Origin: a virus
Lineage: Duplodnaviria; Caudoviricetes
DNA: 43,035 nt
IMG/VR virus record: IMGVR_UViG_3300030098_004559
Location: 1 to 43,035 of that record
Strand: one strand, 5' to 3'
Shown: positions 13,615 through 19,148 of the stretch, one piece after another
How the letters are laid out: every line of letters begins with the position of its first letter
Position numbering within the stretch: position 1 is the first letter of the stretch
Made by a program: the position numbers and the translations under genes
The notes under the pieces: generated by a model
What the model saw: only the letters and a program-made list of their open reading frames with translations
Databases searched by the model: none
Told to the model about the DNA's origin: nothing

Positions 13615-13817
13615 GCTATTGTATCTACGTCGATTCCTTTTACTATCTCTATATACTCTTTTAACACGTTATTTTCATACATCAGAGCCTCTACTAAACT
13701 CAGGACTCCCTTTTCTAGGGTATAGCTTTTTGTCCCCACTATTAGCAGATTTCTTTTTACGTCTAGGCTTACTGTTTCCTCTTTTATCAGAGGTATCTCC
13801 GTTTTTATCGACTCCAT
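13611..13817 (-). CDS. Hypothetical protein (68 aa) overlapping the terS 3' end
   Basis: GGAGA SD 5 nt before ATG; its TGA overlaps the terL ATG (ATGA coupling). Confidence 0.6.
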   Translation of the reverse strand: MESIKTEIPLIKEETVSLDVKRNLLIVGTKSYTLEKGVLSLVEALMYENNVLKEYIEIVKGIDVDTIA

Positions 13818-14595
13818 TTATATCTCCAAAATTAATCATATTGTTTATTTCTTTGTCTGATAAGTTCTTTCTAAACTCTGCAAGTATCTTTTTGTCGCCC
13901 TCTGATATTGCAATAGTAGTTGTACCTTCTAGTTGTTCTACTTTCTTTTCATCGTGACCAAGTAAAGTACTTACTCTATTTAATGCGGACAATCTAACAT
14001 TTGGAGTTATTTTTTCGTTTTCTACAAACTTTTTCAAATTAGTAGCAACATAGTCGTCATCTAAACCAATAGACTCTAACTTGTCTTTCATTAATTCACT
14101 CATATGTTCTTGTATCCTCTTTTTTTTTAAAATAATATTTCCACGCTTTAATGAGTTAGTTGGGTTATTGTCTCTATATACAGACTGATAAGCGTTGACT
14201 ACACTTTCATTTGTCCACATGCCATTGTCTTCCATCTTACCCTTTGTGCTTAATATATCAATAAACCTTTTTTGTAGTATCGTAGGCTTTACATCTTTTT
14301 CTACCTCATAATAAAAACCTTTGTCATTTCTTGGATCAGGATACTTCTTTGCATACAATGTCGACTTGTATGTCGGTGTTTCTCCAAAACCAGTCCTTAT
14401 ATAGTGTATAGGCTTCTTTCTATCCTTTAATTGCGTCTTGCGTCTTGATATAACTTGTATAACCATATTATCATTAGTAAGCACCCAATCGCCCTTATCA
14501 GCGTAGCGCCAATCATCACGATACTCTATGTTGTTGTCCTTAGCTTCTTGTACACTATATATGTGAAATTCTTTGTTTCTACACTTAATAAGCAT
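13675..14595 (-). CDS. terS: Probable terminase small subunit
   Basis: 306 aa, first gene of the late arm upstream of terL; helical region AYQSVY...RIQEHM...RLSALNRVSTLLG resembles TerS. Confidence 0.55.
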   Translation of the reverse strand: MLIKCRNKEFHIYSVQEAKDNNIEYRDDWRYADKGDWVLTNDNMVIQVISRRKTQLKDRKKPIHYIRTGFGETPTYKSTLYAKKYPDPRNDKGFYYEVEKDVKPTILQKRFIDILSTKGKMEDNGMWTNESVVNAYQSVYRDNNPTNSLKRGNIILKKKRIQEHMSELMKDKLESIGLDDDYVATNLKKFVENEKITPNVRLSALNRVSTLLGHDEKKVEQLEGTTTIAISEGDKKILAEFRKNLSDKEINNMINFGDINGVDKNGDTSDKRGNSKPRRKKKSANSGDKKLYPRKGSPEFSRGSDV

Positions 14596-15023
14596 AAAAT
14601 AATATACAAAAACATTTTATTTATTGAAATAGCATTGTTATATTATAATACTTCAATGCTCAATCTCTCGGGGGGTCAGCTCCTAAATACAGCAAATTCC
14701 CATCTGGCTCCCCACTCTCCTAAAAGTTGAAAAATAGCGTAAAAAATCTGTAGGAGGTAGATATATATATACGTGCCCCCATGTGTTGCCGAACGCGTTC
14801 CTAGATTCCGTTGAGTTCGCGTTGGTTTTCTCGTCGGATCCACCTACGCGTGTGTGTACCTGATATAGGCAATTTTTTTTTTGCCCTTTCACCGAAGAGA
14901 ATCGAAGGCACAGCCACCAAACACCGAAGAGAAAGCACCTTGTCAAGTGTTTTAAAAAGTTTTTTTACGAAGGGGAACGGCATTTATTTTCAAATATTGC
15001 CTTATCTATGCCTAATATTCAGC

Positions 15024-15070
15024 AGTGGCAGTAGCAACAGCAGTAATGAAGCCACTAAGCTTTTTGAAAT
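15024..15070 (+). promoter_or_regulatory. boxB-like hairpin plus boxA-like antitermination motif
   Basis: Stem AGTGGC(15024-29)/GCCACT(15051-56), followed by GCTTTTTGAAAT (15059-70), which resembles rrn boxA. Confidence 0.35.
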
Positions 15071-15110
15071 AGTCTTGGAGGGTGAGCAGTGTAAGACCAA
15101 ACCCTTTAAA

Positions 15111-15665
15111 CGTAAGAGTGTGACCGAAATGCTAATATTGGGAATTGTGCAGACAATTCTAGTGGGGAACGAAAAGATACAAGAGTGACTATCTTGTAAG
15201 GTTTAAGCCATAGGCTTTAACACGTCAAAAACGAAATCCACAGCCTAGAGTTAGCTATGTATGGATTAGGAACTAAGGACAGCATTTTAATTACTAATGG
15301 ATATAGCCCTTATCAGAATAGTTAGGGAACGAAACGAGAGCATAATATTGCTAGCCATATAGAATTAAATTTAATGAAGTGGAACACCAACCAAAAAGAC
15401 ATCGTACGTAGTAATATGACGTGCAGAAGGGTTACTAGTCGGTAATCTGAGATATAGACTGACGTTTAGTCGATTTTAGGCTGAAGTTAGATTAGGGCGA
15501 AACGTGTTTGCAATAACACCCATTAGAAGAGAAAAACTTCTTTTTCTATCTGTAGCGGATAGACTAACATATAGTATTTATTATAATATGATAGTGCGAG
15601 GACGAAAACAAAACTAACCTATGGTAATGTTTTGGAGTAGTAGCAGTTGTGCAATAAATCTTACG
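15111..15665 (+). ncRNA. Candidate large structured non-coding RNA (~555 nt; ROOL/GOLLD-like class, family unassigned)
   Basis: No credible ORF. Ends pair (CGTAAGA 15111-17/TCTTACG 15659-65, extended by a G-U-rich helix). Many local hairpins, several long-range helices and six CGAAA motifs. Confidence 0.6.
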
Positions 15666-15717
15666 GCTTGAAATTTCCTTACAATACACACAAACAATAT
15701 ATAAATGGGGGTTATTT

Positions 15718-15846
15718 ATGGTAGAATCATTATTGACATTTATAGCAATTATATTTATTCAATTTATATTAATTGTTATAGCATTAAATAAAATAGAAAG
15801 ATTACAAAGAAAGATAGAAATTTATATTAATAGACTTGATGCTTAG
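15718..15846 (+). CDS. Small membrane protein (42 aa)
   Basis: MVESLLTFIAIIFIQFILIVIALNKIERLQRKIEIYINRLDA; GGGGG SD; one transmembrane segment. Confidence 0.55.
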   Translation: MVESLLTFIAIIFIQFILIVIALNKIERLQRKIEIYINRLDA

Positions 15847-15947
15847 CTATCAATCGATGAACAGCTAAGTTCTTAACGCTTACCAAATAGCATATCTCTA
15901 AGCCTGTTGAAACATACAGGCACAGAATTAAAAAGATAGGAGTACAT

Positions 15948-16129: not shown

Positions 16130-16852
16130 ATGAAGCTAATAAGTGAACCTAAGGTAAACTATAAGATAAAAAAGAACCTAAAAAAAGGGTACTATACATA
16201 TAGTTTAGCATTAGCACATTCTGATATAAGTGGTTATAATGTATGTCCTAGGGCAAACAGACTACGAATGGGTGAGAATGTGAACAAGAAAAGCACTTGT
16301 TCATCTGTTTGTGTAGGGTATAATGGATTCGCTCAAAGGTTTCCAAGTGTGATGGAGGCAAGGGTGCGAAAAACCAAGATGTTCTACGAAGACAGGGGGA
16401 CATTCCTAGAGTTGTTAGAGCAAGATATATCTAAAGGTATCGTAAAAGCTGAGAAATTAGGCTTTAAACCGACGTTTAGATTAAATGCATACTCTGATAT
16501 ACTTTGGGAAAACTATGGTATTATTGATAAGTTTAGCGATGTAACATTTTATGATTACACTAAGATAGCTAACAGAAAAAGAATACCAAGTAATTACCAA
16601 TTGACGTATTCACATTGGGGTAATTGGGAAGATACTATGAATGCATTAGGTAGAGGTATGAATGTGGCGATGGTATTTGATAAGACACCAAGTGAGTGGA
16701 ATGGATTTGAAGTAGTAGATGGAGATGAGACAGACCTAAGAATAGATGAGAAAGATAGTAAAGGAAACAATACAATAATAGGACTCAAGTTCAAAGGTAG
16801 TAAGAAAGAGCTAGAGCAAGGAATAAAAGATAGATTTGTAGTAAAAGCTTAA
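16130..16852 (+). CDS. GP88-family phage protein (Cys-cluster, possibly Fe-S)
   Basis: CP..C...C, RLNAYSDI.WE, FYDYTK, NYQLTYS, DGDETDLR and GLKFKG motifs match my recollection of the GP88 family. Confidence 0.7.
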   Translation: MKLISEPKVNYKIKKNLKKGYYTYSLALAHSDISGYNVCPRANRLRMGENVNKKSTCSSVCVGYNGFAQRFPSVMEARVRKTKMFYEDRGTFLELLEQDISKGIVKAEKLGFKPTFRLNAYSDILWENYGIIDKFSDVTFYDYTKIANRKRIPSNYQLTYSHWGNWEDTMNALGRGMNVAMVFDKTPSEWNGFEVVDGDETDLRIDEKDSKGNNTIIGLKFKGSKKELEQGIKDRFVVKA

Positions 16853-18842: not shown

Positions 18843-18844
18843 AG

Positions 18845-18912
18845 CTTCCCTGGTATACGGAAGGGGGTTGACTAGAGTAAACGACATGTCGGTGGAATCC
18901 CAATGTATACCA
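18845..18912 (+). ncRNA. Candidate pseudoknotted RNA element
   Basis: CTTCC(18845-49)/GGAAG(18859-63); loop TGGTATAC(18851-58) pairs with GTATACCA(18905-12). Confidence 0.35.
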
Positions 18913-18932
18913 ACAATTAAGCAAGTGAGCGA

Positions 18933-19039
18933 GAGATAATGAGAGAGTTTTAACGGCTATAAAAACTTAACATTCGTTGAGAGGTACAGATGCATAATCA
19001 GGCTATAGCGTCCTCAAGCAAAAGTTCTCTCTCAATCTC
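18933..19039 (+). ncRNA. Candidate branched RNA element just 5' of the tRNA
   Basis: GAGAT/ATCTC plus TGAGAGAG(18940-47)/CTCTCTCA(19027-34); inner TTGAG/CTCAA stem. Confidence 0.4.
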
Positions 19040-19047
19040 ATATACAT

Positions 19048-19131
19048 GCTAGTGTATACAATTTGGAAAAGTAAGCAGTCTGTAAAACTGATGGCAATGT
19101 GCCTTTGTAGGTTCAAATCCTACCACTAGCA
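19048..19131 (+). tRNA. tRNA-Tyr (GTA)
   Basis: Acceptor GCTAGTG/CACTAGC plus A73; anticodon loop CT-GTA-AA (GTA 19082-84); long variable arm GGCA-ATG-TGCC; T arm GTAGG-TTCAAAT-CCTAC; no encoded CCA. Confidence 0.9.
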
Positions 19132-19148
19132 CTAACAATGGAGGAGTA

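Follow-up and report, generated by a model that had tools for sequence, protein, structure and literature searches.

A large structured RNA element heads the early operon in a clade of marine phages: an apparently undescribed family

The window, a linear virus record of 43 kb, raises the question of what occupies the stretch in front of its early genes. Its head, portal and terminase genes are oriented leftward, and its methylase, Sak, replication and resolvase genes rightward. The element in question sits between the probable small terminase gene (13675-14595), which is named from its position only and gave no result in a single-protein scan, and the first rightward ORF (15718..15846, + strand), an early ORF of 42 aa with no PHROG match that sets the 3' limit of the element. 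The initial annotation had placed here, at 15111..15665, a candidate large non-coding RNA on the + strand, either a divergent member of the ROOL or GOLLD families or a new class. These coordinates are correct, and the absence of a credible ORF in the roughly 555 nt was borne out: on the + strand of 15020-15705 no ORF exceeds 37 aa and none is conserved, on which ground a coding reading was rejected. An ORF of 125 aa with a TTG start (14811-15188) overlaps the 5' edge of the element and has no PHROG match. The body of the RNA would be closed by helix P1 (15111-17/15659-65, + strand), whose pairing recurs in relatives, and the transcript probably begins near 15025, upstream of the annotated 5' boundary at 15111. 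The element of the window measures 555-614 nt and those of its relatives 361-587 nt, which gives a clade range of 361-614 nt. Close protein relatives of the phage occur in environmental collections including Tara, and for this reason this group of uncultured phages is called marine here. The closer relatives by small terminase (P0002-P0008) are 79-83% identical. A blastn comparison of the element with GenBank phages gave no match.

The window sequence taken singly makes a case for a structured RNA that is suggestive only. The seven long helices of the initial annotation are all fully complementary, and six of its seven local hairpins fold as given, the hairpin at 15443-94 folding only in part. 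The folding test that it had proposed came out in favor of the + strand (z of -3.1, with 0/100 shuffles as good), against a z of -1.4 and 7/100 shuffles for the - strand. Across the element, 200-nt windows gave z values of -1 to -3, and coding controls went down to -6.5. Folding energy alone therefore proves little, since coding windows fold as well or better; the value of -6.5 belongs to the coding stretch 16400-16599 (a 200-nt control window, 12 shuffles). Of ten elements that were folded, five had a sense-strand z weaker than -1.5 (L003, L156, L006, L008 and L013). Enrichment was seen only for the local hairpins (5 of at least 6 bp vs 1.3 in shuffles, reached by 6/300); the long-range Watson-Crick helices of at least 7 bp are at chance level (12 vs 8.15 +/- 2.9, with 35/300 shuffles reaching 12). 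Closure of the ends was rare in shuffles (1/300), but the boundaries had been chosen on closure. The case for an RNA rests on relatives.

Such relatives were found in viral and in metagenome sequence, as the initial annotation had asked. A terL scan gave 68 loci, and the nearest terL relative, L015 (86%), has a syntenic element of patchy sequence identity. Metagenome scans added the homologues L127 and L135. When motifs were used as queries, a true homologue among the viral matches was present only in the contig of L015 (1/7, 1/30 and 1/12), and 3/15 of the metagenome matches were homologues, namely L127, L129 (identical to the window) and L135. Between the window, L015 and L135 the stems vary and their pairing is kept in four hairpins. 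Two of these lie at 15504..15541 (+ strand), where a hairpin with a T-loop-like UG(C/A)AAU loop (stems GUGUU/AACAC, ACGGGU/ACCCGU and AUAGCU/AGCUAU) is followed by an invariant CCAUUAG and by a hairpin with an AGAAAAA loop (AAG/CUU, GGG/CCC and AGG/CCU). The other two belong to 15595..15655 (+ strand), which is composed of an invariant UGCGAGGACGAAAAC, a hairpin that displays CCUAUGG (15618-24), GGAGUAGUAGC and the hairpin 15640-55. The hairpin 15142..15159 (+ strand; GAAUUGU/ACAAUUC) has a differently sequenced counterpart in L015 and L135 (GUGUA/UACGC and GUGUA/UGCAC), and the small GUGG-loop-CCA hairpin at 15379..15389 (+ strand) has the same stem with an altered loop in L015, L127 and L135. 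P1 is kept as GUAAG/CUUAC in the window, L015, L127 and L135, and reads GUAAG/UUUAC in L013. Whole hairpins have also been gained or lost among the window, L015 and L135; two inserted hairpins at 15545..15595 (+ strand) are specific to the window and correspond to a gap in L015, L127 and L135.

The comparison with L015 and L135 reshaped the fold first annotated. Support from relatives was obtained for 15111-17/15659-65, 15208-14/15618-24 and the hairpins 15142-59 and 15504-19. Two helices were overturned because each competes with a conserved one: 15221-27/15417-23 with helix A of the core, and 15118-24/15646-52 with the hairpin 15640-55. Others have no counterpart in L015 or L135: the helices 15127-33/15281-87, 15294-300/15520-26 and 15241-52/15472-83, and the hairpins 15545-63 and 15563-95. 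The last of these helices, of 12 bp, encloses the core (15241..15483, + strand) in both the MFE and the centroid structure of the window. One further candidate, 15468-72/15664-68, has 3 compensatory changes and was not counted, because by a rough estimate about as many 5-bp candidates arise by chance. A profile of the 3' half of the window lineage matched no other lineage. An AAUACAC-A-rich motif (15683..15697, + strand), located in most elements, is common to several lineages, with 14-17 nt of near-identity between L135 and L013, L058 and L007.

More distant relatives, at 71-74% terL identity, have an ORF-free stretch of 361-587 nt at the same spot; L156 was found by its small terminase and not by terL. 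The sequence of the element is alignable only within each of four lineages, and an automatic alignment of their cores failed. The core pattern that they share begins with CA(C/A)(G) and continues with a helix whose closing pairs are G-C and U-G, a linker of 3-5 nt, a second helix and GA(A)GA. In the window it lies at 15404..15452 (+ strand), in the order helix A (15404-09/15419-24), the 4-nt linker AGAA, helix B (15429-36/15441-48) and GAGA, and both helices are present in 13 distinct sequences. A descriptor of this pattern, written from the very sequences on which it was run, found 13/14 distinct elements with one match each at the syntenic position, and 3 distinct stray matches in 1.76 Mb of partly redundant sequence; the core of L158 was missed because a run of N interrupts helix A. 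The closing pairs are invariant (G-C 13/13, U-G 13/13) and the inner pairs are of 3-4 types. The invariant U-G pair would read C-A on the other strand. Inner pairs of helix A number 2.92 of 3 when both halves come from the same sequence and 1.22 when they are combined across lineages, and the corresponding values for helix B are 3.0 and 1.57. Within lineages, covariation was seen in 37/80 and 19/156 predicted pairs. Homologues with compensatory changes, the invariant U-G pair included, support the annotated reading of a large structured RNA on the + strand at the start of the early operon.

The core was also searched for outside the clade. Among 24 IMG/VR matches to its sequence alone, both helices form only in the 2 clade contigs. 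In GTDB genomes a terL search gave nothing, and although the core pattern matched at 3 places, both helices reached 5 bp or more in none of them. A model built from five sequences of two other lineages ranked the core of the window 2nd of 19 (11.3 bits, E 0.49) and matched the cores of L135, L007, L015 and L006 at E values of 1.7-5.2. The predicted core was recovered in this way in 5/9 held-out elements, each individually weak, and missed in L008, L009, L159 and L158, a result that lends support when the fixed position is taken into account and is otherwise weak. In a terL tree of 34 rows, 14 of them unlabelled for the element, 11 RNA-bearing and 9 lacking rows fall on opposite sides of a 100/100 branch. 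A row was labelled as lacking when its upstream DNA had been read and no descriptor match was found; L032 was labelled from the descriptor and its terL identity with L035 only. Within the clade the element was always found at the head of the early operon and never elsewhere. Relatives outside the clade are without it, and in L023, L030 and L059 the early genes begin soon after the promoter.

Two smaller elements were observed in the same phages. One of about 280 nt is conserved just upstream of the small terminase gene (L013:4685-4958 and L002:1612-1900, both - strand). It is also present in L003, L006, L008, L012, L156, L007, L009, L010, L011 and L058 and absent from the window, L015 and L135. 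Seven of its sequences align, with compensatory change in 12/48 predicted pairs, and it had no Rfam match at E<=1 in the loci scanned and no raiA match. The other, of three hairpins, lies between the first two early ORFs (window 15846-15935; L015:3840-3955, - strand; L135:2700-2815, + strand); its last hairpin has a UGA(A/G)ACAU loop and compensatory stem changes and is possibly a processing signal.

Besides the core, the feature that recurs among lineages is a pair of distant complementary loops. The window, L015, L135, L013 and L158 each have a single CCAUAGG before the core (15208..15214, + strand, in the window) and a single CCUAUGG behind it, against a background frequency of 5.4e-5 per base. 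L058 has CCUAAGG/CCUUAGG, in which both partners have changed in a compensatory way. CCAAAG/CUUUGG is present in L008 and L159, the swapped arrangement in L002 and L156, a different 7-bp pair in L003, and a pair with one mismatch (5 of 6 pairs) in L006 and L007; partners in lineages 3 and 4, including the last three of these groups, were hand-picked. In all, 6-8 contiguous Watson-Crick pairs are possible in 11/13 elements. Most of the partners are part of a hairpin loop or adjoin one. Their distance from the core is 85-196 nt on the upstream side and 110-215 nt on the downstream side, in elements of 361-614 nt total length. A blind loop-loop test was only modestly above the null (at least 7 bp in 3/13 vs 3/150, at least 6 bp in 5/13 vs 24/150). 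Pairing of the 5' and 3' ends was not significant across the clade, most elements doing no better than controls, and in the window it was matched by 149/200 shuffles by energy and 42/100 by best helix.

Several putative expression signals were found upstream. A predicted -10 box TAATAT (15013..15018, + strand) would place the early start at about 15024-15025. A generic scan did not list this box, and by eye a TAnnnT hexamer precedes the same G-rich start by no more than a few bases in 12/12 elements. A 5' hairpin in a boxB-like position follows (15024..15056, + strand; AGUGGC/GCCACU, in MFE and centroid), with the same stem in L158 and a different one in L003. Next comes the boxA-like motif GCUUUUUGAAAUAG (15059..15072, + strand), a T-run plus RAMATAG that is found in 10/14 elements, is partial in L013 and L158, and is absent from the two closest relatives of the window, L015 and L135. 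It fits 9/11 positions of GYTCTTTAANA, a gammaproteobacterial consensus, and differs at position 4 (PMC5725501, as far as the accessible part of that paper goes). According to the same part, position 4 is one of two positions that were mutated together to abolish binding (PMC5725501). The segment after the motif (15067-15076) could form a 10-bp helix with the ribosome-binding region of the first ORF (15708-15717); it includes four G-U pairs, has 5-7-bp analogues in L015 and L135, and may be due to chance.

At the other end of the element, an acceptor and T-arm resembling those of tRNA begin at the 3' end in L002, L156, L006, L007, L008, L159, L013 and L058. Such a module thus lies directly behind 8/9 of the elements whose 3' end was tested in the other three lineages. 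In L158 three of them lie further downstream, and in L003 a T-loop was seen only when the pattern was relaxed. No tRNA-like module occurs in the window lineage. ARAGORN reported 0 tRNA genes in 12 loci and called none of the modules. L155, a relative without the element, seems by eye to have one. The modules are also repeated between early ORFs, with three in L158:1190-1520 (- strand) and two in tandem in L156:935-1110 (- strand). The only tRNA of the window is 3.4 kb from the element; about 200 nt of non-coding sequence (18843-19132) precede this tRNA-Tyr, between two methyltransferase genes.

What kind of element this is was judged against four other explanations. That the stretch is a DNA element, such as a genome end, a packaging site or an origin, or else an unselected spacer with chance folds, is in our view very improbable. 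The position between packaging genes and early operon would suit it, as would the chance-level long-range helices and the local z values within the range of coding DNA, but this reading is largely refuted by the covariation, the compensatory changes and the invariant U-G pair being strand-specific. Moreover, the DNA-like motif of the junction lies about 300 nt upstream and is also present in relatives without the element. This motif (about 14745-14815, with TATATATA, a C run and CGTTGAGT) is adjoined in relatives by CGCG-rich repeats and is a candidate genome end or packaging site. The main rival, possible and not our preference, is that the early transcript carries the element as a structured leader acting in cis, of which any released piece would be a by-product. 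It would keep the polymerase processive, as HK022 put RNA and the lambda nut sites do, or shield and pace the early mRNA. This would explain why the element is always directly behind the promoter and boxA-like motif, and it agrees with the non-significant end closure of the clade and with a core made of two adjacent hairpins. However, the core of the window is about 380 nt from the predicted start, the long-range loop pair spans the core, the tRNA-like modules are predicted to sever the element from the mRNA, and relatives outside the clade do without it.

A ribozyme, possibly a stripped-down relative of RNase P that processes the tRNA-like modules or itself, appears improbable. The order of the short core motifs resembles the P15-P18 region: the lineage 4 core reads GCAAG-helix-GCUUA-helix-AGAU, as in three real RNase P RNAs, in an order which we take to be J5/15-P15-J15/18-P18-J18/2. 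A P4-like long-range helix surrounds the core, and tRNA-like substrates adjoin it. However, the pairing register differs, a GC that is unpaired in RNase P being paired here in 13/13, and the RNase P model RF00010 found nothing in 5/5 phage records with 8/14 controls above its cut-off. Of CR-I and CR-V, which in RNase P RNA form P4 with a bulged U, the CR-V pattern was absent in 12/12 elements, a CR-I pattern was present in 1/12 and in no case with the bulged U, GAAAGUCC occurs only in an insert specific to L015, and the core model had no match in three RNase P loci. Group I and II introns were rejected, with no Rfam match, an S pattern in 0/12 and an R pattern in 2/12 elements (none in the window) and no flanking exons, and crude regular expressions for hammerhead, HDV-like, pistol and twister ribozymes gave no consistent match. 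We regard a highly diverged ROOL or GOLLD RNA as equally hard to credit. Similar size, phage context and tRNA-like neighbors speak for it, together with a 47-column local match (score 38, z about 5) between the 3' end of L015 and the ROOL RNA of L. salivarius. That match came from one among 52 comparisons, the window gave none (z -1.1), and an RNase P comparison in the same set reached a z of 5.7; the RNase P-like motif order and the borderline ROOL match are leads only. The ROOL model RF03087 gave 130 bits on a control plasmid and nothing in the window, L015, L013 and L012 records, nor in any of five clade records, and the core model had no match in ROOL. The GOLLD model RF02032, which represents the conserved 3' region and was run without a positive control, had no match at the locus and a best score of 4.4 bits away from it, in 1/5 records. 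Neither model matched in 151 sampled genomes, and ROOL relatives found by blastn were all from L. salivarius. The Rfam search that the initial annotation had suggested matched no family in the window, nor in L015 or seven other loci; OLE, raiA and other families had no model match (raiA 0/5 records). As neither the ROOL nor the GOLLD model scores, the annotated idea of a divergent member was given up and a new class, the alternative it had named, is the better of the two.

From sequence comparison, the stretch is a conserved, covarying RNA-type structure in one marine phage clade, characterized by its position, a two-helix core, distant complementary loops, variable peripheral hairpins and, in sister lineages, tRNA-like modules. 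It is a real family of large, structured RNA elements in phages, apparently not described before. A literature search, whose coverage of subscription papers was thin, found no description of this RNA. The candidates of 29-151 nt in the accessible part of PMC10690425 could cover sub-modules of the element. We prefer, with a confidence that is about even, the reading as a new class of large structured RNA that would be made first, cut from the early transcript and act in trans. Host sigma-70 polymerase would start near 15025, and the boxA-like motif may load Nus factors, by which we propose that the long untranslated stretch escapes Rho. The two loops would then pair over 6-8 bp, either intramolecularly or from one copy to another, and so hold the domains together around the core. 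Host RNase P could cut at the tRNA-like module and so free the 3' end; in the window lineage, which has no module, P1 plus trimming would set the end. Early in infection the free RNA might then bind some factor of the host. The products that a phage expresses first often counter the defences of its host, and on this basis our pick, a rather doubtful one, is that the RNA would serve as a decoy or scaffold, with an RNA-binding or anti-phage protein of the host as its target. A more elaborate picture is likewise tentative: a further large phage RNA class unrelated to ROOL or GOLLD, the first product of infection, which might be released by tRNA mimicry, assemble through covarying kissing loops of 6-7 bp into an RNA-only multimer acting on the host, and have a core that echoes the RNase P catalytic-domain junction.

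Large structured RNAs of bacteria or phages are rare, and this family would add an independent case whose place in the infection programme is fixed. Its natural length variants of 361-614 nt point to a minimal core, and the loop pair is amenable to swapping. It also illustrates how such RNAs evade sequence searches, as across lineages only the core of about 50 nt and the loop pair are recognisable. Several known systems share parts of this design. In phage antiterminator leaders such as lambda nut and HK022 put, a hairpin is followed by a boxA-like arrangement as in the element, and the boxB-boxA order of rrn leaders likewise resembles a hairpin and boxA-like motif directly behind the early promoter. 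However, here the motif is followed by conserved structure over 360-610 nt, which includes a long-range loop pair; the motif also differs from the E. coli-type consensus, and neither L015 nor L135 has it. MALAT1/mascRNA has a tRNA-like 3' processing signal behind a long non-coding RNA. The acceptor and T-arm directly behind the element in sister lineages recall this arrangement, but the module is absent in the lineage of the window and cleavage is only predicted. GOLLD (RF02032), as described in the available part of PMC12286853, is a phage RNA that lies next to tRNA genes, is known from marine sources as well, and has one conserved and one variable part. It often adjoins tRNA genes, while the element adjoins ARAGORN-negative tRNA-like modules in sister lineages and, at 361-614 nt, is much below the about 800 nt or more of GOLLD. 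ROOL (RF03087) is about 580 nt long, against 555-614 nt in the window and 361-587 nt in relatives. Like the element, it is a phage-linked RNA of several hundred nt with few invariant bases, variable stems, conserved loops and loop-loop contacts (PMC5737381 and PMC12286853, in the parts accessible). ROOL forms an RNA-only octameric cage. The element has one supported long-range loop pair, and few alignable homologues to set beside a ROOL-type loop topology. It further differs from ROOL in that it has a fixed position in front of the early genes, occurs in a single marine clade and measures 361-614 nt. The function of the cage-forming large RNAs is itself described as an open question in the accessible part of PMC12286853. 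To judge from these comparisons, the element resembles ROOL and GOLLD in kind and is a member of neither.
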